64,000 nt of DNA. Origin: a virus (Duplodnaviria; Caudoviricetes). Made by a program: the position numbers and the translations under genes. Shown here in pieces: positions 19 through 55,813 of this stretch. The stretch is taken from positions 24,931 to 88,930 of the IMG/VR virus record IMGVR_UViG_3300011116_001123; one strand, written 5' to 3'. A model generated the notes under the pieces. That model was not told the origin of the DNA, did no database searches, and worked only from the letters and a program-made list of their open reading frames with translations. The stretch's first letter is position 1. Every line of letters begins with the position of its first letter.

Positions 19-570
19 TTATGGAGTCGGATAATCCACTTTCGGAACAGGTAGATTTCCTGCGCCGGTAGTACAGAAAGTTTGTTTCAATTCTTTGGTT
101 AAGGAAGGTGCGAAAACACTAACGTAAAAATTTGAAAGAATTATACCCAACTTGTCAGAACTACAATTGAAATATGCTTTAGATCCAAATCTATCGAGAT
201 CGAAAACCACATCATTATTTCCAGTAACGTCAGAGTATGCTTTTTGAATTTTGAAAGTTCCATATAAATTACCAATCTCATCAGGTTTGTTTTTTCCGCT
301 AATTACAGAATATGTGTTGAATTGTTTACCCACATATTTTTCCAAAAGATCTGGATTATTGAACGGATTTGTTGTCGTGTCTCCACTAGTAGTCCCACTA
401 GTTGGGTTTGGAAGAGTTGGATTTGACATTGGTGGAGTAGTCTTGGTTTTCACACCAGGATTTTCACCAGTTTGTACAACAGTGGTTTGAGTTTGTTCAC
501 TCATCAGTCGTTTCTCCAATCTTTGGTTGGCTTCTTGAATATGTCTGATTTTACTATAACTTCTATTCAT
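19..570 (-). CDS. Hypothetical protein with N-terminal leader (..LMSEQ) and Thr/Pro-rich linker
   Basis: 183-aa ORF; TATTTAT upstream on sense strand (586-592). Confidence 0.75.
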   Translation of the reverse strand: MNRSYSKIRHIQEANQRLEKRLMSEQTQTTVVQTGENPGVKTKTTPPMSNPTLPNPTSGTTSGDTTTNPFNNPDLLEKYVGKQFNTYSVISGKNKPDEIGNLYGTFKIQKAYSDVTGNNDVVFDLDRFGSKAYFNCSSDKLGIILSNFYVSVFAPSLTKELKQTFCTTGAGNLPVPKVDYPTP

Positions 571-604
571 AATTTTACATTTCCAATAAATATCATTGGG
601 GAAT

Positions 605-633
605 AAAAAACCCCACCTTTATGTGGTGGGGTT
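605..633 (-). terminator. Intrinsic terminator
   Basis: CCCCACC/GGTGGGG stem with T-run on minus strand, downstream of 655-1062. Confidence 0.75.
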
Positions 634-654
634 AATTTATTAAAGTTATTTATT

Positions 655-1062
655 TTATGCTTGAGGTTGTTGAGGTGCTTGAGCCTTTGCAATCGCATTT
701 GCCAAAGCATCAAGTGGTCCCAATACATTGGAAATTGCCGGTAAATATGGTTTGAACGAATTTGTATTTTGATATTGAGCAATAGCCTTTTTAATAGTAT
801 CAGGAAGATTACCAAGTTGTCTTCTGATTTTCAAAATATCATAAATTGCATTTATTTCATTTTGTTGAGCCTGATAAGTCTCTCTGTTCGTGGTTCTCAA
901 ATCTTTTCTTGCATCTCTTCTTGCGTCCTTTGCATCTCGAACCCCTGCTCTAGCAGCATCAAGTCCTTGTTGTGCCGCCAGTTGTTGACTAGTTTGTTCT
1001 TGTATTGCCCTTTTAACTAATTTTGCTAAATCAGCTTCGGTCATTCTTATAATTTTTCCCAT
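655..1062 (-). CDS. Leader-bearing helical protein (MGKIIRMTEADLAKLVKRAIQEQ)
   Basis: Class-1 leader; TATTTAT at 1080-1086. Confidence 0.8.
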   Translation of the reverse strand: MGKIIRMTEADLAKLVKRAIQEQTSQQLAAQQGLDAARAGVRDAKDARRDARKDLRTTNRETYQAQQNEINAIYDILKIRRQLGNLPDTIKKAIAQYQNTNSFKPYLPAISNVLGPLDALANAIAKAQAPQQPQA

Positions 1063-1161
1063 GTTGTGTTTAGTTTAATATAAATACTCATTACATAAAA
1101 AAAAATCCTCATTTTATGGGATACAGATAAAAAAAAGATTATTTTTGAAAAAAAAATCGAT

Positions 1162-1683
1162 ATGCTAAAATTCCCAATTTTTTTATTGATACCTTTCATT
1201 TTTGGGTTTCAAACACCAAATAATAATGATACACCCATCATTATTCACTTTGAACAGATTCTAAACGAATATCGGGATTCAAATGGGTTAAATCCAGTCA
1301 AAATTGACCACTCAATGAAAGAATTTACTGATTTACGTAGCAAAAGTTTAGTAAGCGATTATAGTCACAATGGGTTCAATAAAAACTTGCGATCATACAT
1401 TACAAATTTTACTGTGGGTGGTGAAAACATTGCAATGTTAATAAACGCTCCTAACGATAATAAGCCATATTGGTCTTCAGATATTGAAGAGGTTGGTAAA
1501 ATTCTCAACAAAATGTCCATGGGAACATCAACGAATTATGACGTGGCAATGTATTGTTTTTCGCTATGGAAGAATTCGAAATCTCATAATGAATTACTTC
1601 TTAACAATAAAGTAAAAAGGTTCTACCTTTCTTATGAAAAAAGTAAAACCTTTTATTATTTCTGTTTTATTGGATTAGATTAG
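1162..1683 (+). CDS. CAP/SCP-domain protein with hydrophobic N-terminus
   Basis: LNEYR..NGL, SH, GENIA and W.NS.SH..LL motifs of CAP domains. Confidence 0.75.
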   Translation: MLKFPIFLLIPFIFGFQTPNNNDTPIIIHFEQILNEYRDSNGLNPVKIDHSMKEFTDLRSKSLVSDYSHNGFNKNLRSYITNFTVGGENIAMLINAPNDNKPYWSSDIEEVGKILNKMSMGTSTNYDVAMYCFSLWKNSKSHNELLLNNKVKRFYLSYEKSKTFYYFCFIGLD

Positions 1684-2987
1684 TAGTAATGACAAGGAAG
1701 AACTCCTTTTCTAACGAACAATCCTTTCAAGGAAATATCTGGTAAGGTAATTTGTGGAAGTCTAATTTTAACTTTTAATCTTTTTCTACCCGTGGCACTG
1801 AATCTAACCATAAAATCAGTTTGAGAAATCGGTACAAGTTCTTCTGGAATTGGTTCGGTTGGTACGGGTTCAGATTGAGGTGGTGTTGTTCCTTTAACTG
1901 CAAAATCAAAAGTTAAATCTACTCTTTGATACTTCTTCAATTCATCTTTGTTTTGCCCATTGTATTCAGGTCCACTAGTTCCAGTACCATCAAGGGTCAG
2001 TGTTTGATTTCCACTCTTAACTGAGATTTGTTTTCCTGCATTAGTTCCTTGACTATCGATCTCAATACCCTCAGGATTAATTACTCCATTCCTTTGTTTA
2101 AGTCCCTCAACAATATAGTCATATACCACTTTTGCTCTTGCATCAGAAAGTTCTTTGAATGTTGGAATTTTTCCTGGAAAAGTTTTTTTACTCACACCAT
2201 TTGGAATTGTTGAACTCGATGACGTAATTTTCAATTTATTTACCCATACATCGGCAGGTTTTCTTCCTTCTTTCACAAGTTCTTCACTCATTTTTTTTAT
2301 TCCCTCATCAATACCACCAAAAATATTGTCATTAATATATTGAATGAATTCAGGAGTCATAACCGCCTCATTGAATTCGAATTGCATTGGTTGTTGAATT
2401 GTTGGTGGAGTGAACATTGTGTATCCTTGTTCCATTACTGGTTCACTCACTTTTCCTTCTTGAGGTGGTGTTATTTCCTCTTTGATTGTCACACTATCAT
2501 CAACAATAATATTTTTATCTTTGATAGTAGAACGTTTTGACCCCAATAATCCAGAATAATCATATCGTTGATCGAAAACTCCATCCCCATACTCTACTTT
2601 TGGTTTCCCGAGTATATTTTTTCCAGCGAATCGATCACGTGGCCCCGTGTATTTTGAAACCACAAATAAAAAAAACTTAGGGTTTTCAACTCTCATTTTT
2701 TCGAATACTCCGAGAGATGTTTCGTCCATAAGTCCTTTCATTTGGTCTAGTTCTTGCTTGAAGGCTTCACTATTAGCCGCCAACTCCCTTGAATAAGAAT
2801 CCAAATCTTTCCCACTTAAATATTTTTCGATATTTGGGTCACGAGATGACAATATTATATCAAGACTTTTCATTTGTTTGACGGAGATTTGTTCCGACAT
2901 CAAGTAAAGATTCTTTGTTGCTGATTCGTGAAGAGACAAAATTCTTTTTCTTTCTTCGTCCGATATTTGCCACGTTTGCTTTATCAT
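1680..2987 (-). CDS. Leader-bearing protein with OmpA-C-like peptidoglycan-binding domain
   Basis: Leader ISDEERKRILSLHE..LMSEQ; FEFNEA, LSDARAKVVYDYI and YQRVDL resemble OmpA-C motifs. Confidence 0.6.
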   Translation of the reverse strand: MIKQTWQISDEERKRILSLHESATKNLYLMSEQISVKQMKSLDIILSSRDPNIEKYLSGKDLDSYSRELAANSEAFKQELDQMKGLMDETSLGVFEKMRVENPKFFLFVVSKYTGPRDRFAGKNILGKPKVEYGDGVFDQRYDYSGLLGSKRSTIKDKNIIVDDSVTIKEEITPPQEGKVSEPVMEQGYTMFTPPTIQQPMQFEFNEAVMTPEFIQYINDNIFGGIDEGIKKMSEELVKEGRKPADVWVNKLKITSSSSTIPNGVSKKTFPGKIPTFKELSDARAKVVYDYIVEGLKQRNGVINPEGIEIDSQGTNAGKQISVKSGNQTLTLDGTGTSGPEYNGQNKDELKKYQRVDLTFDFAVKGTTPPQSEPVPTEPIPEELVPISQTDFMVRFSATGRKRLKVKIRLPQITLPDISLKGLFVRKGVLPCHYY

Positions 2988-2997
2988 ATTATATAAA

Positions 2998-4017
2998 TTA
3001 ATTTAAAAATACTTGAGATTCGAAGTTTCTACGTTTCGATAAACCAGGATAATATTGACCTGTCTGTGCTCCGGTGGTTGGACCTTGTGCGATGTAAGCT
3101 GCTGCAGCTTCCATATCTCCATCTACGATTGCATTTTTTATATTTTTCCCGTAATCCCTAGCAGTGAAAACATACGGACCAGCATTATAACTGAAACTTA
3201 ATAACGCGGCTTTTTGAGAGTCATTTAATTTTTCCCAGTTCAAGGGTCCAAGTTGGCTGGCAACGATTGGAGCGAAAGTATTTTTTAATTGATAGTCCAA
3301 AGTTTCTTCAGCTTCCTCAAGCGTCCAAGTGGTTTTGGGTGTCACATCGACCAACTTACCACCGACTAATTTTTTGGATGTTCCATACCCACCTCTATAT
3401 GTACCTTCATCATCTGAAGCTGTGTCACTGAACGTTTCAAATTTTCTGATGAGTTGCTTTGTCATTTCCAACCAATCACCCGATAAAGAAATATTGATAT
3501 TTCCGACTAACGGGTCTATTAATTTTTCTAAATCTTCAGAGTCGATATTTTTTTCTTTAAGAAGTTCAATCATCTTAAGTAACATTTCTTCTGAGGCTTT
3601 TGTCGGACCTACTTCTGATGATTCCTCAGATGAAGTTGAACTATCATCTTTTTCGACATGGTCATTAGTAAATTCTTCAACAGCTTCGGCAGTTTCAGGT
3701 CCAAACAACCCATCGACACCATGAATTGGTAAATCATATCCAAGAATAATCAAACCAACCTGCATTGATTCAACTTCTTTTTTGAAATTGTAACTACCTC
3801 GTTCTTGTTGAGATATTCCACCATCCTGAGCGGCAGTTTCCAATGTATCGAAAAATTCATCCACATCGACTCCAATTAAATCAGCTTTGGTTGGATCATC
3901 ATCTTTTTTGTAGCCAACGTCTTTCAAAAATCGGTCAATAAATTCTTGTTCAACAATTTGACTACCATACATCATGGAATGCATTCTGTGCAATTCCTCA
4001 GTCAATGATTTTTTCAT
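2998..4017 (-). CDS. Leader + peptidoglycan-binding domain + GH24 (phage) lysozyme
   Basis: MQVGL..LGY..GVDGLFGPET (PG-binding); FE..D.G..GYG, QKAALLSFSYNAG and GLSKRRNFE (GH24); TATTTAT 4022-4028. Confidence 0.8.
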   Translation of the reverse strand: MKKSLTEELHRMHSMMYGSQIVEQEFIDRFLKDVGYKKDDDPTKADLIGVDVDEFFDTLETAAQDGGISQQERGSYNFKKEVESMQVGLIILGYDLPIHGVDGLFGPETAEAVEEFTNDHVEKDDSSTSSEESSEVGPTKASEEMLLKMIELLKEKNIDSEDLEKLIDPLVGNINISLSGDWLEMTKQLIRKFETFSDTASDDEGTYRGGYGTSKKLVGGKLVDVTPKTTWTLEEAEETLDYQLKNTFAPIVASQLGPLNWEKLNDSQKAALLSFSYNAGPYVFTARDYGKNIKNAIVDGDMEAAAAYIAQGPTTGAQTGQYYPGLSKRRNFESQVFLN

Positions 4018-4390: not shown

Positions 4391-4921
4391 TTATTGAAAA
4401 CCACCTTTCTCGTCGTAGTAGCTTAGAATTTGACTAAGTACTGAGATTACTTGAGGTAAATTTTCTCTGTCGTATTGTGTGTATAGTGTTGTATAAGGAG
4501 TTCCGTTTACATCTCTATCATTCTTTCTTTTTGAATTTTTTCCTCTCATAGGAATTGATGCCAGCAATTGTTCGAATTTAATATCTGCAAAAACAGAGAA
4601 ATAGCCACCCTTAAAAACTGTCAAGTATAAACCATCTGCTCCTGGCGTGAACCACGATTCAATTTCATCATTACTACCCGATTCTTCGGCTGGATGTACT
4701 TTGCTTAATTCCGAAACTAATTTTCGATAATTCTTTTCGGTCTCTATTGACGGTGGATTTGAAGGAATGGAAGGCATTTTACGTCTGAAGTCGTCAAGTC
4801 TTCGTAGAGCCATTTTTTTAATTTCTTCTTTGCTTCCTGGAATGATAGCTCCTTGTTCTTTAATTACTCTTCTAACCAATCTAGTCAAATCTGCCTCGGT
4901 TAATCTAATAATTTTTTTCAT
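4391..4921 (-). CDS. Leader-bearing hypothetical protein (MKKIIRLTEADLTRLVRRVIKEQ)
   Basis: Class-1 leader; TATTTAT 4939-4945. Confidence 0.8.
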   Translation of the reverse strand: MKKIIRLTEADLTRLVRRVIKEQGAIIPGSKEEIKKMALRRLDDFRRKMPSIPSNPPSIETEKNYRKLVSELSKVHPAEESGSNDEIESWFTPGADGLYLTVFKGGYFSVFADIKFEQLLASIPMRGKNSKRKNDRDVNGTPYTTLYTQYDRENLPQVISVLSQILSYYDEKGGFQ

Positions 4922-4993: not shown

Positions 4994-6223
4994 TTACTTA
5001 TACAGTACAAAATTATTTTTTTTATCTTTCAAATCAATGACTTGAAACTCGGTGGGGGTTATGGGATAGACAAGATAATCGACAGCATCCTTATATTTTT
5101 TCGATTCAAACCTTTTTGCATCTGATTCGGAGGATTTGACTTGAATTGTTACGGCATCCTTACCTCTTCCCATAATCAAGTCCACAAAAAAATTCATATC
5201 AATAAAGTTTCCGTTGCCTCCACGATATAAAACATTGTATCCAAGTTTTTCAAAAGCATTGGCGACATCAGATTCCATTTGGTCTCCCAACTTGGAAAAT
5301 TTAGTGGTATACTTGGTAAAGTTCATTAAATCCTTTTTATCTTCCAAATATTTTTCGAACAAGTCCTTGAAGTTGTCTTTATATTTTAGTAGGATATTTT
5401 TGATTACTTCGGAATCCGAAGCTGTAGATATTGTGTCGAGAATGCTTTTAGCTGCAGTACTTCCATTACTTTTAGCCTTCTCCAAATAAGTTGACAATAA
5501 ATCAGATATGTCAGAATAGTTGGTGTTCAACTTATTAACATAATGCCATTTACCATTCGGATTTAAATTACCTTCATCATCAACGTACACCAATTTTTTT
5601 CTATTTAAGTTTCTTACAAAATAGTCATATTGTTTGTCGTTAATTTTACCATATGAATTTAATATTTTGGCACCTTTGAGATTGTCTTTAATATCATCTT
5701 GTTGAATATCAAATTTGATATCCGATAAAATATCATCAACCACTTTACGAAGGTTCAACCCTTCATTAGATTCCAACCAAGCCCCCAAAGAATTTAATTT
5801 GTTATATACATTACCACCCAACACCTTGGAGATATTCCCACTCAGTTTTTCTTCTTCCTGACGGGAAATGATTTTATCTACAACCTCTCTATTCCTGTTT
5901 TGATATCCAATACATCCAGTTGGGACTTGTAAACCACCAAATTTGGTTATGGTCATGCTTTTGCAGGCATATGAGCTCATATCCAACTCAATAACATCCT
6001 CACCCAATTTGATTTCCAAATATCCCTTATTCCCATACAATTGTGATAAATCATTGGAAGTCAATTTACCTTCTCCTCCATCAATGACAACAGGATTGTT
6101 CACATAGTAATAATTACCCTTTGAACCCAACGAACTACCTTTGATGGTCGCAATATTCACACCAGTCTGAATGACCTCAAGCAAATGATTTAACTGACCT
6201 TCTGAAATGATGAAGTTTCTCAT
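4994..6223 (-). CDS. Leader-bearing protein with C-terminal PD-(D/E)XK nuclease-like domain
   Basis: Start moved to MRNFIISEGQL (TATTTAT 6230-6236); G..ME..VA..F, VDL and TIQVKS motifs. Confidence 0.65.
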   Translation of the reverse strand: MRNFIISEGQLNHLLEVIQTGVNIATIKGSSLGSKGNYYYVNNPVVIDGGEGKLTSNDLSQLYGNKGYLEIKLGEDVIELDMSSYACKSMTITKFGGLQVPTGCIGYQNRNREVVDKIISRQEEEKLSGNISKVLGGNVYNKLNSLGAWLESNEGLNLRKVVDDILSDIKFDIQQDDIKDNLKGAKILNSYGKINDKQYDYFVRNLNRKKLVYVDDEGNLNPNGKWHYVNKLNTNYSDISDLLSTYLEKAKSNGSTAAKSILDTISTASDSEVIKNILLKYKDNFKDLFEKYLEDKKDLMNFTKYTTKFSKLGDQMESDVANAFEKLGYNVLYRGGNGNFIDMNFFVDLIMGRGKDAVTIQVKSSESDAKRFESKKYKDAVDYLVYPITPTEFQVIDLKDKKNNFVLYK

Positions 6224-6279: not shown

Positions 6280-6975
6280 TCACAATAAGTCAATAATCGG
6301 TTTTGACCACTCTTTCACTAATCGTTTGGAATTTATTTGTAAATTTTTAAAATTTTCTACAGTAAACGGACGACCTGATACTTTGGTCATAAATTCACCT
6401 TCTTTTCCTGGGTGGAACTTCCCCATGTTCTCTTTTACACCCAAACCAGGATAAGAAGAATTGTTTGTTCCGAATAAATAATTGTCTCCGAAATCGAAAA
6501 TGAACACGCTGTCCTGACAAAAGATTTCACCCAACTTGATAATATTTTTAATGAATTTGGGGTCATTATTGGAATTGACAACGAAATATGAATCCTCCTT
6601 TACCTCAATCGCATTTTCTTGCATATAGTTTTCGATATATGTACCCTTAACTTTGGTAACATCATACCCTACAACCAGTAATGAGGATAGTAGTTTTTTG
6701 TTCCGGCCCTTGTTATCGTATATGTTGATTCTTTTATCATCATCTTCGTCATATAAACAATTGGTTAAAGTTTTTCTGAACGCACTAATTACCGCACATT
6801 GATTGTTTTCAATGTATTTGTTTATTCTACTTAATGAAGATTCCACAATTTTATTAGACGAAACATTCGTCTCAATTATTTCTTGAAATAATTCAGGGTT
6901 TATTCGTCGTCTTAATGATACATAATCAGGATCATTCAAAATTTTTCTGTACTTGTCAATTAACTCTCTCATCAC
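6280..6975 (-). CDS. S-adenosylmethionine lyase-like protein (T3 SAMase family) with N-terminal extension
   Basis: ISAFR, N..RN, GTYIE, EDSY and FCQDSV in the same order as the T3 SAMase motifs as I recall them; TATTTAT 6979-6985. Confidence 0.65.
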   Translation of the reverse strand: MMRELIDKYRKILNDPDYVSLRRRINPELFQEIIETNVSSNKIVESSLSRINKYIENNQCAVISAFRKTLTNCLYDEDDDKRINIYDNKGRNKKLLSSLLVVGYDVTKVKGTYIENYMQENAIEVKEDSYFVVNSNNDPKFIKNIIKLGEIFCQDSVFIFDFGDNYLFGTNNSSYPGLGVKENMGKFHPGKEGEFMTKVSGRPFTVENFKNLQINSKRLVKEWSKPIIDLL

Positions 6976-7079: not shown

Positions 7080-8261
7080 TTAAACTTCTAACCAACTGAT
7101 TGGTGGTTTGGAAACCTTTTTACACAGTCCTTTTTCCAATAAAAAATCATTTGTAGGCTGAATTTCAGTTTCGAAAGGCTTCAATGATTTCAAATTTGTT
7201 GAAACTCCATCCAATGTCACTTCTATCGTGATTTCATCACTCAAATATTTTTTATACAAGTAATTGCTCAGTTCGAGTGGACCTTTGGGTAATTCTTTCA
7301 TTTTTCTACTCAAAACCGTATTCCCTCTAATTTCTCCATTCTCTATCGCGTATTGACTCAGGGCATTCCTTACAATACCCTCGAGGAAAATATCGAATTC
7401 ATACAAATAACTTGCACCCCTTTTTGGTGCATAAAATCTCAAACTTCTACTCCCATGTTCAGTCACTATTTTGGTGGGGATTTTTCTATCAAAAACTCCA
7501 TCTTTGATATTGATTTCGACATACATACTGTAAGATTTTGCAAATTGATAAACCTTGAAAGAGTTGGAATTGAACTCTTTTGAAAATTTATATTCCACGG
7601 GGTTCTGAATAATCTTAGGTAATTGGTAAGGAGAGGAGGAACACCAATAATACCCTTCTTCACTTTGATTGGTAATATAATTATAAAGTCCAGCAGACCC
7701 ATATGTGCCGACACCGAGCCTTTCAGATGCTTCCTTCAATACGTCCAAAAAATTGGCACCCCCACAAGCGGTGAAAAATACTTTTGTTCCAGAATGAATT
7801 AAAGGTTTGAAACTATCCAAAAAAGTATTATCGAACATGTATGCACCTTTTTCCTTTTGGGTCATTAATAAGTTACCTCCCTTACCATGAGACCCAATAA
7901 CAAACTCATCAGTTTTAACACCCTTTTTTACAAGACCTTCAACAAAACTAACTGCCGAAGATAAACTTGTGAAAAATCCTGTAACGATTCCCAATTTTTT
8001 CAACAAGGAAAGAGCCATTTCTTCCCAACCATACAAAGGAAAAATTAATCGAACTTTTTTTATCGAAGCCGCAGGTTTATTTTTCAAAGCATCGAAATAC
8101 TTTTCTTTTTCCAAACCCTGAAATCGATTTTTTTCAAATGCACCGTCTTTACCCAAATAGTCAGATGTAGGTTTATCTGATGGGGCAACATTCGGATTGA
8201 ATAATCGTCTTGTTTGTTCTTTTAAAAAATTAAATTGATTTTTGGTTATACGTATTTCCAT
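7080..8261 (-). CDS. Leader-bearing protein with caspase/CPD-like (DUF4347-like) His-Cys domain
   Basis: FVIGSHG..G and VFFTAC motifs; TATTTAT 8267-8273. Confidence 0.55.
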   Translation of the reverse strand: MEIRITKNQFNFLKEQTRRLFNPNVAPSDKPTSDYLGKDGAFEKNRFQGLEKEKYFDALKNKPAASIKKVRLIFPLYGWEEMALSLLKKLGIVTGFFTSLSSAVSFVEGLVKKGVKTDEFVIGSHGKGGNLLMTQKEKGAYMFDNTFLDSFKPLIHSGTKVFFTACGGANFLDVLKEASERLGVGTYGSAGLYNYITNQSEEGYYWCSSSPYQLPKIIQNPVEYKFSKEFNSNSFKVYQFAKSYSMYVEINIKDGVFDRKIPTKIVTEHGSRSLRFYAPKRGASYLYEFDIFLEGIVRNALSQYAIENGEIRGNTVLSRKMKELPKGPLELSNYLYKKYLSDEITIEVTLDGVSTNLKSLKPFETEIQPTNDFLLEKGLCKKVSKPPISWLEV

Positions 8262-8290: not shown

Positions 8291-8332
8291 GGGGATGGGG
8301 ATTAGAACGGATGGTGCGGTATACGAATATCC
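8291..8332. repeat. Intergenic repeat copy 1 (internally deleted)
   Basis: GGGGATGGGGATTAGAACG-GATGGTGCGGTATACGAATATCC. Confidence 0.85.
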
Positions 8333-17158: not shown

Positions 17159-17470
17159 ATGAAATATATTATACCTGAAAAAAGAATAGAAAGGTTGGCG
17201 AATAAGTACTTAAGTTCTTTAGGGTTAACAGAAGGAAATTATGATGAGGATGGGTTTGATATAATACAAGGTGTTAATCATATGCTGGCGTACCGTAGTG
17301 AAGAAGAGAAATTATACATGAACATTTACTTAATCAAAGACCTCCGAGACCTTTTTGATTTGACCCAAAGAGAAAGTATGACCTATATCAAAAATTGGTT
17401 TCAGGACGCATATGAAACAGATGTGAAGTCAGTATGGTTGTTGTTTCCTGATGAACCATTCACCTATTAA
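17159..17470 (+). CDS. Family-A small protein
   Basis: MKYIIPEKRI..KYL; LRDLFDL..WF..Y; TATTTAT 17148-17154. Confidence 0.75.
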   Translation: MKYIIPEKRIERLANKYLSSLGLTEGNYDEDGFDIIQGVNHMLAYRSEEEKLYMNIYLIKDLRDLFDLTQRESMTYIKNWFQDAYETDVKSVWLLFPDEPFTY

Positions 17471-18191
17471 TATGATTATAAAATAAATTGGACATTACCT
17501 GATGTCCACTTACCCCCAAATGAAAATCGAATATTTCTTGGTTGGTTTCTTCTTTTATTCTTTCCCCACCATTTTTCTCGATTAGTTTAATCATATTATC
17601 AATCTCCCACTTCATATAAATCTCATCACCCATAATAATTCTTTGGTTATCTCTATCTTGAATCTCTCTATTATAAAGAACATAGGGATCACAAGACCAA
17701 TAAAACACTTTGAAACCAACCAAATCGGAAATATAATTTATTAATTCCATTCTCTGATTTATGACCTCAGAATATAAGTGAAATGTGTTATCACTCGTTC
17801 TGTTGAAAACAATCTCATTTGATGTTTGTTCGGTTATATCTTCGGTACCATTTAAAACCGAATGGTTTCTTCCAAAGTTTGTGTTAATCCATTTTCTCGT
17901 ATCATGGTTTGCCCACATGAATCTTGAAAGAAATGACCAACCGATGATTACCACATCATTTTTTTGAATTGTTCTGATTTGTTCGATTACTCTATTGAAT
18001 ATCATGTCATTCCCCGCGCCAGGTATCCCATGATTTACAAGATTCAAGTTCATTCTGTTTGATAATAATTCAAACCATGTGCTCGGAAAACTTCCCCCAC
18101 AAAATGTCTTATATCTCCTATACTCATCAGTTTCCTCATGATATGGAGAACTGAAACTACAACCAAATATGTGAAGATTATTAATTACCAT
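17460..18191 (-). CDS. SGNH/GDSL-like hydrolase
   Basis: FGCSFS, NHGIPGAGN, IGWS...R and H....GH motifs. Confidence 0.7.
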   Translation of the reverse strand: MVINNLHIFGCSFSSPYHEETDEYRRYKTFCGGSFPSTWFELLSNRMNLNLVNHGIPGAGNDMIFNRVIEQIRTIQKNDVVIIGWSFLSRFMWANHDTRKWINTNFGRNHSVLNGTEDITEQTSNEIVFNRTSDNTFHLYSEVINQRMELINYISDLVGFKVFYWSCDPYVLYNREIQDRDNQRIIMGDEIYMKWEIDNMIKLIEKNGGERIKEETNQEIFDFHLGVSGHQVMSNLFYNHINR

Positions 18192-19166: not shown

Positions 19167-19173
19167 TGTGTAT

Positions 19174-22336: not shown

Positions 22337-23053
22337 TTAAATCAAACCTTTGTTTACCATCTCTTTAACCACAGTCAATTGTTCAGGACTTGGAGTATCC
22401 AACCATGAAATTGCAGTGTCGAAAACTTCACTCAACTCAGGTGTTAATAATTTTTTTTCTTGTAATATAATTTTAACTTCTATCAACTGTTCTTTCAACT
22501 TTCCGACTTGTTGTACAAGAACTTCGACACCTTGAGTTTTCATAAGTTTTGTTATGAAAATCCAAAAAGACCATTTGAATTCTCGTTTATCAAACAAAAT
22601 TCTGTAGTTAATTATTCCTTTTTGTATTGCCCATCTTTGTATTGAATCGGGGGTCATTCGCAATAGGTTTTTAATCCCCTGCTTGACTCCTACCGATGCA
22701 ATATTTCCTCCAACAGGATAAAGTCCAAATAATGCCGTTACTAAACCTAAAATAATGAATTCTGTTCTTTGAAGTCCTGATGTCATGGCAGCTCTTACAA
22801 AGTAGGATAAAGCATGAATTTCATCTATTACAAATGAAATAAGATTACCAAAACCTGGTACTACATCTATAGCCGCAGAAATAGCATCAACCATAAAATC
22901 TGCTCCCATGGGTTTTTTTGAATCGATTGCTCGCTTAGATTGACCGAAATTTTCAGGTGGTGCAAATTTTGGAGCAAGTGTCTTACCTTTCAATTCAAGA
23001 GACGTTTGCTCCATCACTTCTTTGATTCTATCTATATCTTCTTGTAAGTTCAT
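22337..23053 (-). CDS. Class-3 leader + unrelated hydrophobic cargo
   Basis: MNLQEDIDRIKEVMEQ; DVVPGFGN and hydrophobic hairpin segments. Confidence 0.75.
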   Translation of the reverse strand: MNLQEDIDRIKEVMEQTSLELKGKTLAPKFAPPENFGQSKRAIDSKKPMGADFMVDAISAAIDVVPGFGNLISFVIDEIHALSYFVRAAMTSGLQRTEFIILGLVTALFGLYPVGGNIASVGVKQGIKNLLRMTPDSIQRWAIQKGIINYRILFDKREFKWSFWIFITKLMKTQGVEVLVQQVGKLKEQLIEVKIILQEKKLLTPELSEVFDTAISWLDTPSPEQLTVVKEMVNKGLI

Positions 23054-33545: not shown

Positions 33546-34935
33546 ATTGTTCAATTTTTTCTTTTAAAACTTTTTGAAATTGATTTGCAATCATCTTCGT
33601 GAACTTAACCGATGGACTATCTTCCGATTCAGGGTTGTATCTGTAGTTACCTTGAGGTGGTCTTGTACTTCTTCCTAAGTAGTTTAATCCTGATATGTTT
33701 GTGATACACTTATGTCCACCAGAGTTTGATTGAATCAAGTCCCAAGCATTAACACCTATTTTATCCAAAATTTTCATTTCATCTTCAGTCAAACTATTGA
33801 AAGGTTTTTCCATCAAAGATTGGATTTTATCCATAACTTTTTCACCACCATCTATGACCGTTATTTTGTCTCCATACAATGCTTTAAAATCTTTGAAGGT
33901 AAATCCAATACTTTCAGGACCGACACTTGTTTCACTTACCCACTTTATCGTTGATAATGGAACAGTTTTTTGTTTTAACTGTTCTTCCCATTTTCCGAGT
34001 ACTTCTTGAGCAATTTCACCCAAATTCACACCTTTGAGTTGTCTGTCAAGTTTGAATGGATTACATGATGCTTGAACCAAACCCATCGGCCATACCATAA
34101 TTAAAAAATCAGCCTCAGGATTGTTCTTATATGGAGTATATCTATCGTAAGAACCTGGCTTGAACATGCTTCCTCCACCATATTGGAAAATAATATTATC
34201 CGTTACAGTCGGAAATGATTTCATCTTCTCTGTATAATCTTCAGCATTTTTCTGAAGTTCTTCAGCTGAAGGTGCTCCAACCGACTTCATCCAAGATTTA
34301 ATATTATTCAAGATAGACATCAGAGATGGTTGTGAATCCATAACTAACATCTCTAAGAAACCAGGTTTGTTCTTAAAGGCTAATAATAGTTTATTAATTA
34401 CTAATCCCAATAACATCTTATTACCTTGAAGAGAAGTTTCTCTATCTAATCGGAACAAATAATTTACCACATCCTCTGGACTTAAGTTTTGTCTTGCAAA
34501 ATCTGCTGAGTCAACTGTGTTAATTAACAATATATCAGATGATGGGAATAGGTCTCTTGGTGAAACGACCTGTGAAATAGTTGCAACATTAGACCGAGAT
34601 TGTCGAAATGACGTAGATTTTGTATCTTCAGCACCCGCTTGTCTATCATGATGATCCGTATGAATAACAAACATTGGTTTACCATGCGCAAAGTCAACAA
34701 GTACGGGCATTGTATCTCCCATTGCGTCATTCTTTTTTACCGCAAATTCTTTGTCACCATATTGAATTACATGGGCATCGACAACATCGATACCGTTATC
34801 CTCAAGGTATTTTTTCATTGCAATTGCGGTGGTTACACCATCTAAATCCTGATGGAAGTAGATTTCAGCTTTTGGATATCTTTTACTTAATCCTTTTATA
34901 TCCCTAATACCACCCTCTTTTATTATTTTTTTCAT
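33529..34935 (-). CDS. DHH-family phosphoesterase with short IIKE leader
   Basis: HQDLDG, VDF, TDHH and SGGH motifs. Confidence 0.7.
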   Translation of the reverse strand: MKKIIKEGGIRDIKGLSKRYPKAEIYFHQDLDGVTTAIAMKKYLEDNGIDVVDAHVIQYGDKEFAVKKNDAMGDTMPVLVDFAHGKPMFVIHTDHHDRQAGAEDTKSTSFRQSRSNVATISQVVSPRDLFPSSDILLINTVDSADFARQNLSPEDVVNYLFRLDRETSLQGNKMLLGLVINKLLLAFKNKPGFLEMLVMDSQPSLMSILNNIKSWMKSVGAPSAEELQKNAEDYTEKMKSFPTVTDNIIFQYGGGSMFKPGSYDRYTPYKNNPEADFLIMVWPMGLVQASCNPFKLDRQLKGVNLGEIAQEVLGKWEEQLKQKTVPLSTIKWVSETSVGPESIGFTFKDFKALYGDKITVIDGGEKVMDKIQSLMEKPFNSLTEDEMKILDKIGVNAWDLIQSNSGGHKCITNISGLNYLGRSTRPPQGNYRYNPESEDSPSVKFTKMIANQFQKVLKEKIEQSKADN

Positions 34936-35294
34936 TGAAACTGTTTTTTAACCCACTCGAGAAAATTTCCCCAATAATCTTCGTGTACACCATATTCGTT
35001 GGCAACTATGTTTTTCAACATAATTTTGTCTTTCTCAGGCATTTTCGCGTAAGTTTTGTCTCCAAATTGACCATCTGTAGGATATACTCCAATCATTTCT
35101 TGATATTTAGCAATCGCTTTCTCAGTCTCTGAATTTCGTCCAGTTCTACCATCCACTACTAAACCAGCATTCATTCTTTTATTCAGAAAAGCCTGAATTC
35201 TATAAATGTGCTCTCGGTGATACATTTGTTCGTTAATCACTCTTTTAACTACTCTTGTCAAGTCGGACTCCGTCAATTTAATTATTTTTGCCAT
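34932..35294 (-). CDS. Class-1 leader + peptidoglycan-binding domain
   Basis: MAKIIKLTESDL..VINEQ; IQAFL..VDG..G..T..AI..YQ..DG.FG..T. Confidence 0.8.
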   Translation of the reverse strand: MAKIIKLTESDLTRVVKRVINEQMYHREHIYRIQAFLNKRMNAGLVVDGRTGRNSETEKAIAKYQEMIGVYPTDGQFGDKTYAKMPEKDKIMLKNIVANEYGVHEDYWGNFLEWVKKQFQ

Positions 35295-47346: not shown

Positions 47347-48186
47347 TTAATAATTCAATATTAACAGCTCTTCTCCCATATTTTGTTTTGTACCTTTTTT
47401 TGCCGCTGCGGCTTTAGCGAATTCTTTTTTCTCCCACGTAAATTTGTTTTCAGGAAACCAATCGTGTAGTAATTCGAAATCATAGTATGACAAACTGAAC
47501 TTACCTTTTATGTTATTCAACGAAATTGCTAATCTTTCGTGGTCATCCCTGTCAAAATCATGGTTACTATAATAGTTTTCAGTTTTCCAATAAGGTGGGT
47601 CAACATAAAAGTAAGTAGAAGGGGAATCATACTTCTCAATCACGGCTTGAAAGTCTAAATTCTCCACGTCAGTAATTTTAAGAAAATGGTCAACCCAATT
47701 TGGTTTACTCAGTTTGTCCCTGAACGCAAGATATTTCGATCGATACTTACCTTTCAAATCAATAAAATTAGAAGTTTCGGGTTTACTACCACTAAAAACT
47801 TGAGATAATACATAAACGTACTTTGCAGCAGTTAAATAATCACAGGTTCCAACTCTGAACCCTTCACCAAAAATTTCAGACTGAAAGGTGTTAAACTTTT
47901 CTTTGAGTTCGAATGAAGTATCACTTATCCCGACTTGTTGTACCTCTATCTCGTCCATCACCCGTTGAAGTTCTGATGGGTTCTGAACACACTGAAATAG
48001 ATTATAATTTAATGGATTAAAGTCATTGTAAACGACTTTCTTAAGGTTTGAGTACTTCTCCAAGTCCATATTAAAAAAACACCAGAACATACCTGAAAAT
48101 GGTTCTACATATGTTTCCATGTCTGTTGGATAAAATGGTACTATCCACTTACCTATTTTTGATTTACCTCCAATATAACTTATCAT
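47347..48186 (-). CDS. Dam-like (D12 class) DNA adenine methyltransferase
   Basis: YIGGKS, YVEPFSG, ND, YVDPPY and ELLI.NY motifs. Confidence 0.9.
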   Translation of the reverse strand: MISYIGGKSKIGKWIVPFYPTDMETYVEPFSGMFWCFFNMDLEKYSNLKKVVYNDFNPLNYNLFQCVQNPSELQRVMDEIEVQQVGISDTSFELKEKFNTFQSEIFGEGFRVGTCDYLTAAKYVYVLSQVFSGSKPETSNFIDLKGKYRSKYLAFRDKLSKPNWVDHFLKITDVENLDFQAVIEKYDSPSTYFYVDPPYWKTENYYSNHDFDRDDHERLAISLNNIKGKFSLSYYDFELLHDWFPENKFTWEKKEFAKAAAAKKGTKQNMGEELLILNY

Positions 48187-51841: not shown

Positions 51842-53278
51842 TTATTGTGTTTTTCTGTTGTAACCAATAAGATTTTTCATCTTTTCCATTTCCTCAGAAA
51901 TCACTTTAGCTTTCTTCTCTTCTTTCGATTCGAGTTGATTCATTATTTTCTGTGCCTTTGCAGTAGATCCCTTCTTCAACCCACCTGATTCTTTCTTTTC
52001 TCCAGCAATATCGACAGGTTGTGGTTGTCTTTTATAAGATACATTCATTTGTTCTGCTCCGTACAAGTTTTCGTCGAAATTCTTTTTGAATCTTTCTCCA
52101 ACTTTTTCACTTCTTTTAGAAACATTACCCAAAGCTTTACCATCGGAACCTGTAACAGCATTTCCATTCTTAGAATCTCCTTTAATTTGTTTTTCAATCA
52201 TTTCATCATCAGGTTTGATTTCGTCATAGACTAAGTTAGTCATACCTGGATAAGCAAAAGCTTCAATATATTCTTCAACAGCATCTGATGGATGATATTT
52301 CTTTTCTTTATGGTCTTTTTCCATATCGTAATTACTTTGAGGGAAGTCCTCAGGGTTTTCATCATATCCTTTACCACCTGAAACCATGTCCTTCATGTAA
52401 TCTTTCATTTTTTTAACTACTTCTTTAGCATAGTCATCATTTTCTTTTTTATTGAGACCCAACACTTTATCAGTTTTTTTCAAACCTTCAGGACTCTTGT
52501 TAGAAATATTCGATTTTTCGTCTTTATCTTTTACTGATTGCTCCAACACGATTTGTTCAATTAGGTCAATCAATTCATCCTCAGTCAATTTCAAAGAAGA
52601 TTTTCTATTTTCCTTAACATTATATGTTTTTCCATCAACTTCAAAGGAATCTTTACCAGATTTCTTCGCATCTGCTAATGCTCCACTAAATGCATTTCCT
52701 TCTTCAGTCTCAGCTTCTCCCATGTCTCTTGGAGTCCTAACTCTAAATGGTTTACCGAACCTTTCTTTATACATGTCGAAGAATTTTTTACCCTCTTTAC
52801 CTGGCGCGAATAATCTTTGCTTCCCTCCATACTTAGAATCAAATGAATCGAAATCGTCAAACTCTTCTTCATCATAGTCAAAGTCAAAATCTCCAGTATA
52901 TTGTCTTTCGTCTTCGTCATAAAATCCGTGGTCATCATCGAATGAACCCATCATTTTTGGTTTACGAGTCACATGAAATTTGTCTCTTCCCATCTCCATT
53001 TCTTCATCTTCAGAATCATCTCCATCAAACTCAAAGTAAAACTCATCAACTTCTTTTTTATTCGTTTTATTATCTCTAAGTTTTTTGAAGTCCGCAGCGT
53101 CTAATTTTCCTTTAGGTTTTGCAACATCCAATTTCTTTTGACCTCCGTGTAATTCTTCGTCAATTTCAATTTCAGTCCATTCACCCATTTCTTCAGAAAT
53201 TTGTTTAACTTTATTTTCGATTTCCTCATTTAATATTTTGGAAACTAATTTGTCTATATTATTCTTGAAATCACTCAT
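51842..53278 (-). CDS. Highly charged multi-module head core/scaffold-like protein
   Basis: ILNEE, internal LKLTEDELIDLIEQIVLEQ and C-terminal ISEEMEKMKNL; TATTTAT 53294-53300. Confidence 0.65.
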   Translation of the reverse strand: MSDFKNNIDKLVSKILNEEIENKVKQISEEMGEWTEIEIDEELHGGQKKLDVAKPKGKLDAADFKKLRDNKTNKKEVDEFYFEFDGDDSEDEEMEMGRDKFHVTRKPKMMGSFDDDHGFYDEDERQYTGDFDFDYDEEEFDDFDSFDSKYGGKQRLFAPGKEGKKFFDMYKERFGKPFRVRTPRDMGEAETEEGNAFSGALADAKKSGKDSFEVDGKTYNVKENRKSSLKLTEDELIDLIEQIVLEQSVKDKDEKSNISNKSPEGLKKTDKVLGLNKKENDDYAKEVVKKMKDYMKDMVSGGKGYDENPEDFPQSNYDMEKDHKEKKYHPSDAVEEYIEAFAYPGMTNLVYDEIKPDDEMIEKQIKGDSKNGNAVTGSDGKALGNVSKRSEKVGERFKKNFDENLYGAEQMNVSYKRQPQPVDIAGEKKESGGLKKGSTAKAQKIMNQLESKEEKKAKVISEEMEKMKNLIGYNRKTQ

Positions 53279-53303: not shown

Positions 53304-54281
53304 TTATTTGTTTCTTTTACTCTTCATTTCGTACTCATGCTCTAAAATAGTTATAATCACAGATTGGTCGATATTCAGTTTATTCGCAACATTCTTTATT
53401 GCGTCTTTGACTGATTCATTTTTACTTAGTTTGAGGGCATTGATGTCCCCTTGATTGCAGTACGGGAATTTGGTACATTTCTTTTTTACTTTAACGAATG
53501 AACCTCCCTTATACTGAGTCTTTCTGCTTGGTCCCCAATCTTTTTTACTGGTAGATTTTGCCCACATAGCTGGTGTCTCATATCCCCCTGAAGAACCTGT
53601 GGTTGTTGCCTCTTTTGCTTCAACCTTTTCCACGTCACTTTCTTTTAATTTGGGAGTCTCACTTCTACTTCTTTCCCAAAACTCATCATCTCCACCGAAC
53701 ACTGGCCCAACATATGCTCCTGATGACCCCGAACCTGTGGCTTCTTTTGGTTCTTCTTTTTTCATTCCCTTCAACTTACACATCTTCAAAAATTCATTAA
53801 CATCAACATCAATATTTTCCTTCTTGAATTGTTTAATCATCTTATGGGCAATCTGTTTTTTATTTTCGACATCTTTGACTTGATTGATGATGTCAACGAT
53901 ACCACGTACCATCTCATTATCGTTCTTACTCAATTTCAGGTCTTTAGATTCTTTTGTCTCCATTCTTTTTAATTTTGTATAATACTCGGGGTCTTCAAAC
54001 AAATGGTCCATAGCAATTTCTTTTGCTTTGGATTTGTTATCAGTATGTTCCATTTCGGTTTTAATCCCTTTACCCAACTCCTTTTCTAAAACACTCAAAT
54101 CAACTTTGTGTTTCTTTGCAATGTCTTGAAGTGTCTTACCGTCCGAGATACCACCTTCTAAATTTTCCTCTGTGAACCCTTGTTTATATTTCATATGGTC
54201 TTGTAATGTCGATGAGTTCAGACTTATCTGCGAAAACGCCTTATCTAAACTATTCTTAAATAAATCTGCTGAACTTTTCAT
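53304..54281 (-). CDS. Multi-module protein with DUF5661-like domain
   Basis: G.K.EMEHT..A.EIAMDHL.EDP.YYTKL; two KEAT..GSSG.Y repeats. Confidence 0.65.
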   Translation of the reverse strand: MKSSADLFKNSLDKAFSQISLNSSTLQDHMKYKQGFTEENLEGGISDGKTLQDIAKKHKVDLSVLEKELGKGIKTEMEHTDNKSKAKEIAMDHLFEDPEYYTKLKRMETKESKDLKLSKNDNEMVRGIVDIINQVKDVENKKQIAHKMIKQFKKENIDVDVNEFLKMCKLKGMKKEEPKEATGSGSSGAYVGPVFGGDDEFWERSRSETPKLKESDVEKVEAKEATTTGSSGGYETPAMWAKSTSKKDWGPSRKTQYKGGSFVKVKKKCTKFPYCNQGDINALKLSKNESVKDAIKNVANKLNIDQSVIITILEHEYEMKSKRNK

Positions 54282-54294
54282 TTAAACTACAATT

Positions 54295-54540
54295 TTAAGC
54301 ATTTTTAAGTCTTGGTTCCCAATAACTTCTGTTCATCCACATGAATTGATAGAATTCTCGGAACATTCTCAAAGTAATATCTTTGACTTCCCCTTCAAGC
54401 TTCCCTCTTTTTATTTCTTTTTGAATTCTGTCCATCAACTGGTCTTCAAATTGTTTGATAGTATTATTATTCATAAAAGATTTTATTTCTTTACGAATCA
54501 TAACTTCTATTTCTTTAGCTTCCGAACTTGTGAGTGCCAT
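54295..54540 (-). CDS. Hypothetical protein
   Basis: 81-aa operonic ORF. Confidence 0.65.
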   Translation of the reverse strand: MALTSSEAKEIEVMIRKEIKSFMNNNTIKQFEDQLMDRIQKEIKRGKLEGEVKDITLRMFREFYQFMWMNRSYWEPRLKNA

Positions 54541-54965
54541 TAGTTACCTATTAATAAAACTGTTGTTAATCCCAATCCCACAAAAGTACCCAACTTCCAT
54601 AAAAAAGTCTGAGCTCGTTGTCCCTTCAATTCTTTGTGTAAACTATCCGTTAATTCTTTAGATAGTTTAAGTTGTTCATCCTTTTTTCCAATGATAAACT
54701 GATTGTTTTCATCTTTTTGTGTTAAGATGGTAATGATATTATCTTTCTGTGATTCTCTCTCTTCCACTTTCTGAATCTTGAGTTTCATCAATCCCATCTC
54801 TTCTTTTAATCCATCGTATTTTAATAAATCTTGATAGACCAATCTGGCAACTCTAACACTTAATACTACTTTGGTGGTGTCTGTTGTTTCAGTTTGAATA
54901 ACGGTCTGCGAAAAGCTTTTCAAGCTCAGCATTACCAATAAAACCAACATTAATAACTTTTTCAT
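54540..54965 (-). CDS. Signal peptide + coiled coil + C-terminal TM (spanin-like)
   Basis: Start embedded in the upstream gene; in lysis block. Confidence 0.55.
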   Translation of the reverse strand: MKKLLMLVLLVMLSLKSFSQTVIQTETTDTTKVVLSVRVARLVYQDLLKYDGLKEEMGLMKLKIQKVEERESQKDNIITILTQKDENNQFIIGKKDEQLKLSKELTDSLHKELKGQRAQTFLWKLGTFVGLGLTTVLLIGN

Positions 54966-55239
54966 CAGTTTGTTCTTTAACCATGTCTATGTTGTTATCG
55001 ATTTCATGAATTTCTTTAGTAATAGAATTTACTGATTCTTTGATTACTAAAACTTTTTCATCCATCTCTTTGTTGACAGATTGAGCAGAATCAATTTCAA
55101 CTTGAATGTTCTCAATTTTTTGTTTATAGGATTTTACATCTGTTTTTATCCCATTTGTATTCAAAATATTCCATAACGCTAACACCATTACTATTACAAG
55201 TAATATATCATGTCTGTTATTGATTATTTTCTCTCTCAT
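54889..55239 (-). CDS. N-terminal TM + coiled coil (i-spanin-like)
   Basis: Topology and position near the amidase. Confidence 0.55.
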   Translation of the reverse strand: MREKIINNRHDILLVIVMVLALWNILNTNGIKTDVKSYKQKIENIQVEIDSAQSVNKEMDEKVLVIKESVNSITKEIHEIDNNIDMVKEQTDEKVINVGFIGNAELEKLFADRYSN

Positions 55240-55240
55240 C

Positions 55241-55813
55241 TTAAACTGGTGACTCTGCAGTCTTTTTTCTATTAGCCAAAACTTTACCCCATTTGGATTT
55301 AAATTTCTGGTAAAATTGTTGAAGTTTATTAATTAAGTCCAAGAACTCTTGGTCAACTTTAATCATTTCTCCGTTAATATAAATTCCACTGTCTTCTCCG
55401 ATCGTGAAGATAAAATCGATATCTTCATCGATAAGTTTACCTGACCACTCAACACTATTTTTATATACGTTCAAAGTGTTGAAGTCAACTAAATCAGAAA
55501 CCTCTTCAACGAATTCATCCATAGTCTCTTGGAATGCAACCTTTTCGTCAGTGGTGATGTCCAAATCACTTCTGTCCTTACCATGAAGTTTTAAGATACC
55601 ACCAGAAATTCTATATTTTTGGGATTTGTCTTTCGGAGTTGGTTCTTCGCCAGCCTCAACCTCAGTCTCAGCGGTATCATATTCAACATCTTGAGCAATT
55701 CTGCTCTCAACATCTTTAGCAACGTTTATTTGTCCGTCTTGCTCAAAGAGTAATTTAGACTTCTTTAATAGAGATTTAATCTCGTCGTACCTTTCGTTAT
55801 GCAAATTGCTCAT
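55241..55813 (-). CDS. Leader-bearing hypothetical protein
   Basis: ..YDEIKSLLKKSKLLFEQ N-terminus. Confidence 0.7.
   Translation of the reverse strand: MSNLHNERYDEIKSLLKKSKLLFEQDGQINVAKDVESRIAQDVEYDTAETEVEAGEEPTPKDKSQKYRISGGILKLHGKDRSDLDITTDEKVAFQETMDEFVEEVSDLVDFNTLNVYKNSVEWSGKLIDEDIDFIFTIGEDSGIYINGEMIKVDQEFLDLINKLQQFYQKFKSKWGKVLANRKKTAESPV

Follow-up and report, generated by a model that had tools for sequence, protein, structure and literature searches.

Short N-terminal tags on otherwise unrelated proteins of an uncultured jumbo phage suggest a possible route for loading proteins into the head

The stretch of DNA analyzed here, which we call the window, comprises 64,000 nucleotides (bases 24,931-88,930) of the 88,930-base viral contig IMGVR_UViG_3300011116_001123, from an uncultured phage, and carries a series of genes whose products begin with one of a few recurrent short peptides, or leaders. 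The contig (G000) is a linear fragment, estimated to be about 29% complete, with a G+C content of 30-36%; a simple call yields 144 open reading frames (ORFs), a tRNA scan found no tRNA, and the contig end falls inside an SbcC-like gene. A protein of 802 amino acids (aa), encoded at 59913-62321 of the window, is matched over its full length on uncultured viral contigs of 181-412 kb, which marks the window as a piece of a jumbo phage. One related genome, G001 (321 kb, terminal repeats), is complete, and its 802-aa protein is 74% identical to that of the window. Across the tag-bearing genomes, core proteins are only 40-74% identical, and searches of cultured phages with the window DNA (megablast, tblastn) and with the 802-aa protein gave no match. 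From the sequence alone, an initial annotation had listed 27 starts of proteins with leaders resembling capsid-targeting signals. All 27 translate as given. About 21 fall in recurrent N-terminal families, and for about a dozen of these the leader is all that is shared. The number of about 25 unrelated proteins was therefore set too high, since it takes in two families of full-length paralogs and six unconfirmed singletons. For four leader families, portable tags on unrelated cargo are real.

Class 1, with the consensus MKKIIRLTESDLxRIVKRVIxEQ, was described as a leader shared by unrelated proteins, and this description holds. Its four members in the window (starts 1062, 4921, 12951 and 35294) are alike over residues 1-23 only, with 55-74% identity in BLASTP and nothing beyond. 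When the six-frame translation of the 88.9-kb contig was searched with profile A2, built from 24 leaders of five genomes, exactly four clean sites were found, each at an ATG and scoring 48.7-55.7 bits; the next best site reached 5.6 bits. The helix is amphipathic and net basic. The conserved block ends in hydrophobic-hydrophobic-x-Glu, with unrelated sequence after it, and the terminal glutamate is kept in 23 of the 24 leaders. The relatives G001, G002, G003 and G004 have 11, 10, 7 and 9 class-1 copies, respectively, on frames of 84-398 aa (profile A1), and G006 (317 kb, estimated 95% complete) has 9. The class-1 profile found no copy in a 72-kb relative fragment.

Selection on the class-1 tag acts on the peptide, not on the DNA. 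Codon positions 1 and 2 of the leaders are 77% and 82% identical, position 3 only 50%; the same codon is used in only 42 of 82 pairs of identical residues, the flanks are unrelated, and similarity ends abruptly after codon 23. This bears on the idea that the element works at the level of DNA or RNA, as a promoter-linked cassette, a translation enhancer or a recombination site, with the peptide as a by-product. Most leader genes do start 4-20 nt after the motif TATTTAT, which puts their first codons at the very start of the mRNA. The idea is nevertheless hardly credible to us, because half of the conserved residues use different codons and because internal copies of the tag, far from any promoter, keep the peptide.

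The class-1 tag is restricted to phages and very widespread. An exhaustive HMMER search of 1.84 billion cluster representatives from metagenomes returned 10,713 proteins at E <= 0.001, 477 of them at E <= 1e-10. Given a tag of only 23 residues and clusters formed at 50% identity, these 10,713 are essentially different cargo proteins. A word-indexed search agrees, with 7,712 of 8,000 scored candidates at E <= 0.1. Among the best 150 representatives, 74 match in a single stretch, which begins at residue 1-3 in 70 of them. When one genome each of 185,579 prokaryote species was scanned with a pattern, five confirmed loci remained, all on 3-7 kb contigs of metagenome-assembled genomes from four unrelated phyla (31-42% G+C); several carry further tag genes, and one has, by eye, a terminase-like gene. 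No Pfam or PHROG family matched the tag, and a full-text literature search for the motif, judged by title or abstract, brought up nothing relevant.

The other leaders of the window differ in how far they are portable (Table 1). Class 4, [ST]E[EQ]E[KR]xxI..H followed by h-x-E-Q (h, hydrophobic), covers the starts 2987 and 11705 and two genes upstream of the window. Class 5 is represented by the start at 570: two different proteins of G001/G004 resemble it at the N-terminus only, one over aa 1-25 (88% identity) and the other over aa 1-29 (69%). These three starts had been listed among the unclassified ones, of which the remaining four (34935, 47302, 53278 and 55813) are singletons that we could not confirm; in the protein starting at 34935, the weak DHH match begins already at residue 25. 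The proposed class 3 divides in a similar way. The leader of the protein starting at 23053 is all that it shares with its neighbors, the diverged leader at 4017 matches the profile, and the starts 26570 and 48395 do not match it at E <= 0.01, so that six listed starts in total fit none of the families. The other three class-3 members (22335, 23394 and 24016) are paralogs over their whole length (BLASTP E 1e-12 to 1e-23), and the span of this trio also encloses the gene 22337-23053. The body encoded by that gene has two hydrophobic segments (58-76 and 97-115). Over 141 residues it is 36% identical (E 2e-22) to a protein of G004 that has a class-2b tag at its start, and the two tags have the same M-E-Q ending. 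Class-3 and class-4 leaders are also present in G001, G003 and G004, where they head frames of 67-483 aa.

Of the nine starts assigned to class 2, two (6223 and 10458, class 2b) share with the others only a short MxxIIxSExQ start, like a shortened class 1. Starts of this type occur ten times at residues 3-4 of contig ORFs, once elsewhere and not at all in 200 shuffles. The body behind the start at 10458 has no BLASTP similarity to other long bodies, and for the one behind 6223 the ESM Atlas gave a weak lead only, to PD-(D/E)XK nucleases (score 0.80). The start at 8261 is weak and does not fit the class-2 pattern. The remaining six belong to class 2a, a set of eight proteins of about 100 aa encoded on the contig, two of them upstream of the window, which are paralogs over their full length (BLASTP, alignment A4).

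Table 1. Leader genes of the window by class (positions in the window; a slash marks the putative cut site)
Feature	Position	Strand	Basis and remarks
Class-1 leader (aa 1-23, AIQE/Q), low-complexity basic body, 135 aa	655..1062	-	48.7 bits; TATTTAT 17 nt upstream
Class-1 leader (aa 1-23, VIKE/Q), 176-aa body	4391..4921	-	52.6 bits; TATTTAT 17 nt upstream; no Pfam/PHROG match
Class-1 leader (VINE/N), 112-aa body	12613..12951	-	54.9 bits; TATTTAT 4 nt upstream
Class-1 leader (VINE/Q), 120-aa body, weak PG_binding_1	34932..35294	-	55.7 bits
Class-2b leader (MNILITESQYNRVVLNE/Q), 414-aa body	9214..10458	-	N-terminal pattern match; no Pfam or PDB match
Class-2b-like start (MRNFIISEGQL), 409-aa body	4994..6223	-	N-terminal pattern match; no Pfam or PDB match
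Weak leader-like start (FLKE/Q), 393-aa body	7080..8261	-	[ILVM]xEQ at residue 13; TATTTAT 5 nt upstream
Class-2a genes	10606-10899, 10921-11238, 13273-13575	-	Full-length BLASTP similarity
Class-2a genes	17159-17470, 21406-21699, 21702-21986	+	Full-length BLASTP similarity
Tandem class-3 paralogs, leader MNLQEDIxRIKEVMGINE	21994-22335, 23050-23394, 23399-24016	-	A6 profile, 61-65 bits
Class-3 leader (aa 1-16, VME/Q), 238-aa body	22337..23053	-	First 14 aa alone match neighbors, 100%
Class-3-like diverged leader (IVE/Q), PG_binding_1 and phage lysozyme	2998..4017	-	A6 profile, 54.2 bits; TATTTAT 4 nt upstream
Class-4 leader (~32 aa, LMSE/Q), 435-aa body	1680..2987	-	A5 profile, 57.2 bits; no Pfam or PDB match
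Class-4 leader, 137-aa body	11292..11705	-	A5 profile, 57.6 bits; G001/G004 homolog shares aa 1-65
Class-5 leader (MNRSYSKIRHIQE...LMSE/Q, ~26 aa), 183-aa body	19..570	-	Comparison with G001/G004 (see text)

The class-2a family and the class-3 trio, both ordinary full-length paralogs and partly arranged in tandem, are one argument for a reading in which the leaders have no common function and their similarity is left over from gene duplication and in-frame recombination between paralogs; the six unconfirmed singletons also speak for it. As an account of the whole set we think it improbable. The class-1 copies are alike to residue 23 only, with drifted synonymous sites and a kept peptide; a single tag heads thousands of clusters of at most 50% mutual identity and is kept across genomes with strongly diverged cores; and tags have been exchanged on one cargo. 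Plain paralogy explains class 2a and the class-3 trio, and we disfavor it for classes 1, 4, 5 and, in part, 3.

An ORF of 817 aa on the minus strand of the contig, upstream of the window (contig positions 16798-19251), combines an HNH or homing-endonuclease region at aa 69-347 (PHROG 559, 9084 and 7140) with an internal, methionine-led, leader-like motif at about residue 385, followed by a body resembling the class-3 paralogs (26% identity, E 0.003). This arrangement resembles an in-frame fusion of a homing endonuclease with a tag gene.

The five leader classes are unrelated in sequence, and all of them end in h-x-E-[QNGS]. Outside class 1, the endings are VME-Q, IVE-Q, INE-G, MLE-Q, MIE-Q, MSE-Q and LNE-Q. 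In the contig ORFs, [ILVM]xEQ occurs 18 times in 5,328 positions within the first 40 residues and 16 times in 20,731 later positions (Poisson P 4e-7; 0.0035 once paralogs are collapsed), and it is found in the first 40 aa of 12 of the 27 leader genes compared with 5 of the 117 others (P 6e-7). Among 250 class-1 copies in 124 metagenomic proteins, the glutamate is kept in 247, and I, L or V stands three residues before the presumed cut in 245. T4 prohead protease cuts at L/I-x-E.

A comparable site can be predicted in the major capsid proteins of the lineage. Genes for a gp23-type capsid protein are present in G001-G003 (PF07068, Gp23, 207-215 bits), and genes for a gp21-type prohead protease in G001-G004 (PF03420, Peptidase_S77, 77-91 bits, over the cut-off); in G004, a 60% fragment, the match to PF07068 is only a 10.8-bit fragment. 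The closest counterparts in cultured phages, at about 42% identity, come from Flavobacterium phage vB_FspM_immuto and Microcystis phage Mel-JY01. Five capsid proteins (those of G001-G003, immuto and the uncultured phage LR756508) have a single invariant glutamate between the conserved ENQ box and the start of the conserved mature part. It stands behind two hydrophobic residues; A or S comes next, and then a variable polar linker (LINE/A, LIYE/A, LINE/S, IVSE/A and LLKE/A). The capsid propeptide profile is collinear with T4 gp23 residues 5-44 and 87-126 (8.1 bits for the first stretch). The predicted propeptide has 60 residues; the T4 gp23 propeptide, lost at the corresponding place, has 65, and gp21-family proteases cut after glutamate in T4, phiKZ, 201phi2-1 and SPN3US, according to part of the text of PMC5694885. 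By sequence comparison, the tag ends (V-I-N-E/Q) thus appear to share the pattern of the inferred capsid maturation site (L-I-N-E/A).

In G006, a gp23-like capsid gene (282592-285735 of the record) is seen only as a 28-bit piece in a 93-aa frame, amid other frames. It may be interrupted by introns or inserted genes. As only this small fragment of the capsid gene is seen, the head genes of G006 may be interrupted or too diverged.

The leader genes are associated with a promoter-like motif. TATTTAT lies within 40 nt upstream of 41 of the 144 contig ORFs, mostly 4-6 or 12-20 nt from the ATG. It precedes 16 of the 27 leader genes and 25 of the 117 others (P 0.0015, computed on 15 of 27 and 26 of 117, that is without counting 7080-8261 among the leader genes with the motif). 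Leader genes without a TATTTAT of their own lie directly downstream of a gene that has one, as was proposed for almost all genes or their operon heads; the class-1 gene 34932-35294, for example, is the second gene behind the TATTTAT gene 35297-35668. TATTTAT also precedes the protease genes of G001, G003 and G004. In G001, one class-1 gene directly follows the capsid gene, behind its terminator-like hairpin, with its own TATTTAT 4 nt before the ATG; in G002, a class-1 gene follows the protease gene at a distance of 4 nt, with two others within 3 kb. The motif TAnnTTTG, which we take to be the housekeeping promoter element of Bacteroidota, precedes none of the 27 leader genes compared with 16 of the 117 others. 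Host-type promoter motifs are thus absent from the leader genes. From the TAnnTTTG motifs and the nearest cultured relatives of the capsid protein, the host is probably a member of the Bacteroidota.

Three further observations concern this motif and its surroundings. A gene on the minus strand of the window (57471-58268) encodes a sigma-70 family factor of the phage, in which regions 1.2, 2 and 4 are present; this factor is a candidate for recognizing TATTTAT. Just upstream of TATTTAT, several leader genes have C/G-rich blocks (CCCCATCCCC or CCCCAACCCC, then a run of T; 8291-8320, 10460-10500, 17118-17150 and similar intergenic spots), which look like terminators of the preceding cassette. A 325-aa DUF5661 protein (60 bits; 53304-54281, minus strand) directly adjoins the 478-aa TATTTAT gene 51842-53278, which has an N-terminal ILNE-E.

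Most of the cargo is nameless. Pfam and PHROG searches with the leader proteins were mostly empty, four long cargo proteins found nothing among PDB sequences, and the ESM Atlas linked two long cargo proteins to viral hypothetical clusters only, with all scores below 0.9. From the cargo list of the initial annotation, lysozyme and PG-binding (gene 2998-4017: PF00959 42.8 bits, PF01471 27 bits) and the SAM lyase (6280-6972: PF23780 35.6 bits) pass the Pfam cut-offs, although the N-terminus of the last cannot be placed in any verified leader family. Matches to DHH, to LRR and to a second PG-binding domain all stay below the cut-off (for the PG-binding match, in the class-1 protein 34932-35294, PF01471 scores 19.8 bits against a cut-off of 23; phrog_2649, endolysin, matches at E 1e-5). 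No nuclease or protease domain was found on the listed cargo in Pfam, PDB sequence and ESM Atlas searches. Among 130 metagenomic tagged proteins scanned, two have LysM, one VanY and one PG_binding_1, and 126 have no meaningful Pfam domain. The domains that profile matches allow us to name would thus all act on peptidoglycan, as expected of entry proteins. A leaderless PG_binding and GH19 protein, encoded on the contig upstream of the window, could be an ordinary endolysin.

An emphasis on peptidoglycan would also be expected if the leaders were export signals that carry cell-wall enzymes and other proteins across the host membrane. We regard export as very improbable. A signal that works at the N-terminus would not account for the internal and C-terminal copies, and as Sec, Tat or lipoprotein signals the leaders can be rejected, since they are charged helices without a hydrophobic core: none contains a 19-residue window with a mean Kyte-Doolittle value of at least 1.6, and 26 of the 27 leader proteins lack any hydrophobic segment.

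Other genes of the contig deserve brief mention. Four paralogs of 243-308 aa, encoded at 17460-19935 of the window (minus strand) and at 22600-23421 of the contig, have G-C-S-[FH]-[ST] near residue 10 and no Pfam match; they might be diverged SGNH/GDSL-type hydrolases. The minus strand of the window also encodes a Y-family (UmuC/DinB-type) DNA polymerase (24453-25655; IMS, IMS_C and DUF4113, E 6e-35) and two DNA methyltransferases, one with an N6_N4_Mtase domain (35714-36577) and one of the D12 Dam class (47347-48186). A cytidylyltransferase-like and an APS-kinase-like protein are encoded beside the former, at 36813-37663.

Together, these data suggest a model in which the phage uses an enlarged variant of the T4 capsid-targeting principle, with several interchangeable tags, a cut after glutamate and delivery of the cargo with the DNA. 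We favor this model tentatively, at somewhat less than an even chance. The tag would consist of a few hydrophobic residues, an amphipathic helix opened by an [ST]-E-x-[DE] cap, and a hydrophobic-hydrophobic-x-Glu end. Tagged proteins would be made from the phage's own TATTTAT-type promoters, alongside the head genes. The tag would then dock them to the scaffolding core within the assembling T4-type prohead, where the gp21-family prohead protease would cut after the terminal glutamate and leave the cargo free inside the head, to be carried out together with the DNA when a cell is infected. We infer all of these steps, from docking and cleavage to the presence of the tagged proteins in virions and their injection. 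In its more specific form, in which at least four interchangeable helical tags ending in hydrophobic-x-Glu load dozens of proteins into each T4-type jumbo head and the protease frees them, the proposal is a little more doubtful. The class-2a proteins and the class-3 trio may follow this route or another.

The likeness to T4 goes beyond the cut site. Part of the text of PMC3012670 describes a short N-terminal peptide as the sole conserved part of the highly diverse T4 internal proteins, and a section of PMC5694885 gives the length of the T4 capsid targeting tags as 10-20 residues. The tags described here, of about 16-32 residues, resemble the gp21-cut capsid-targeting sequences of T4 (on IPI-III and Alt) in being short N-terminal peptides on unrelated proteins and, at the level of sequence, in ending in a site of the gp21-family type after glutamate. 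The lineage also has a gp23-type capsid protein (G001-G003) and a gp21-type protease (G001-G004). Genes for T4 internal proteins are scattered outside the head module, and so are the tag genes here. The differences are equally plain. Compared by eye with ten residues of the T4 tag, the tags resemble it in the M-K start and the h-x-E end and nowhere else. Where T4 has one tag family and about four tagged genes, there are here at least four or five interchangeable families and dozens of tagged genes per genome (27 on an 89-kb fragment). Metagenomes hold more than 10,000 cargo clusters, and the tag is found internally and C-terminally as well.

Several observations weigh against loading into the capsid. 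Genes for the protease and the capsid protein were both not found on the contig itself (PF03420, PF07068), which is explained by the contig being a 29%-complete fragment. The prohead protease that the initial annotation had called for thus exists in G001-G004, and is missing from the contig and undetected in G006, where searches with PF03420, with the G002 protease and with a protease profile all came back empty, one of them run with a positive control. The alignment of the capsid propeptide to T4 gp23 is weak. The leaders had been said to end mostly in [ILV]-x-E, often followed by Q; the form with Q is enriched at N-termini, whereas [ILVM]xE alone barely is, at 0.0276 compared with 0.0210 per position. 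TATTTAT also precedes genes for a GT2 glycosyltransferase, a DUF192 protein and the SAM lyase, which have no obvious role in the virion, so that the motif marks a phage promoter class and not head genes as such. The tag was not found in cultured phages, where tblastn with a 26-aa leader gave one chance-level match (E 3); tblastn with the 164-aa leader protein of G002 gave none, and the leader profile has no match in Flavobacterium phage immuto and two weak ones in the uncultured phage LR756508. For class 2a, an AlphaFold2 (AF2) model with a mean pLDDT of 90.7, which has no Foldseek match in the PDB at E <= 0.001, shows a compact fold of helices and sheets that includes the supposed leader helix (residues 7-23). 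If the model is right, the N-terminal helix is part of the fold there, and not a removable leader in front of a cargo.

The position of the tag in the metagenomic proteins also weighs on this side. The 250 copies in the 124 top-scoring proteins comprise 122 N-terminal, 119 internal and 9 C-terminal ones. These proteins have 2-3 copies each, and as they were picked by total score, multi-copy proteins are over-represented among them. A C-terminal copy cannot be a removable leader and better fits a helix that binds something; to our knowledge, no T4 tag of this kind occurs at a C-terminus. This speaks for a different reading, in which the tag is an uncleaved, general helix for docking or oligomerization, unrelated to the capsid interior, which works at any position in a protein and binds a common hub, other tagged proteins, the outside of the virion or a membrane. 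The amphipathic and net basic character of the helix would suit this role, and internal copies retain the helix core alone (ESDLxRIVKRVIxE). The similar N-terminal helix of class 2a belongs to a stable domain, and G006 has the motif without a detectable S77 protease. For a metagenomic family with two copies (A10), the AF2 model is too poor to be used (mean pLDDT 44); it draws both motif copies as helices, 9-21 and 135-147, with pLDDT below 50.

We consider such a docking helix unlikely on balance, though a serious contender. It leaves unexplained why five leader classes have a common h-x-E-[QN] end, why the glutamate at the exact border of conservation is almost always kept and why this end matches the inferred maturation site of the capsid protein. 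Single-copy matches, moreover, nearly always start at the first residues, and many internal copies look, from their sequences, like in-frame fusions of neighboring tag genes. Methionine is kept at the start of 24 of the 128 internal or C-terminal copies; the stand-alone protein P0105 corresponds to the part of P0002 that follows its internal copy; and one conserved N-terminal module is followed by an internal copy and then by differing C-terminal parts, or by nothing. Fusions fit a protease site, as they would be easily tolerated if the junction were cut.

A further reading takes the tag as a recognition sequence for some other enzyme or machine of the phage or host, such as a modifying enzyme, a chaperone or a protease that times degradation. 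As most of the cargo is without known function, nothing ties it to the virion, which leaves room for this. We hold it to be improbable, if slightly less so than paralogy, because the loci that we read have no candidate partner enzyme beside the tag genes, and because the glutamate-specific head protease is the only conserved enzyme of matching specificity found so far. A radical-SAM enzyme was rejected as the partner: PF04055 has no match in the contig, in G001 (which has 11 tags) or in G003, and matches in G002 and G006.

Capsid loading by cleaved tags can also be set beside other systems that fill a protein shell. In phiKZ, 201phi2-1 and SPN3US, about 50 head proteins, many of them ejected, are processed after glutamate by a gp21 homolog; the SPN3US paralogs gp53 and gp54 share an identical 15-residue N-terminus in front of diverged bodies; and propeptides of the phiKZ/SPN3US type mostly exceed 100 residues and have the motif A/S/G-x-E, as set out in part of PMC5694885. 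The tags described here differ from such propeptides in their length of 16-32 aa and in the I, L or V three residues before the cut. Phages of the phiKZ type also have their own capsid lineage and a virion RNA polymerase, whereas the capsid protein here is clearly gp23-like. Encapsulin cargo-loading peptides are short and portable as well, and direct diverse cargo into a shell of the HK97 fold. They are usually C-terminal and uncleaved, bind the shell protein itself and involve no protease. No encapsulin occurs here.

If the capsid reading is correct, the tags would mark proteins delivered by giant phages into their hosts, a very large and almost wholly uncharacterized set, and the tagged proteins would be prime candidates for entry enzymes and counter-defense factors. 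A principle that covers three or four proteins in T4 would here operate genome-wide, with interchangeable tags, fused multi-cargo proteins and tag swapping, and the in-frame fusions of tag genes would be true polyproteins. The injected arsenal of uncultured giant phages could then be read from sequence alone, and the tag would provide a ready-made handle for packaging foreign proteins. The contents of jumbo-phage heads and their loading route would thereby become testable from sequence. Should capsid loading turn out to be mistaken, this 23-residue peptide, which is under strong selection, is missing from Pfam and PHROGs and occurs on more than 10,000 unrelated phage proteins, is still a sorting or docking element that has not been described before.

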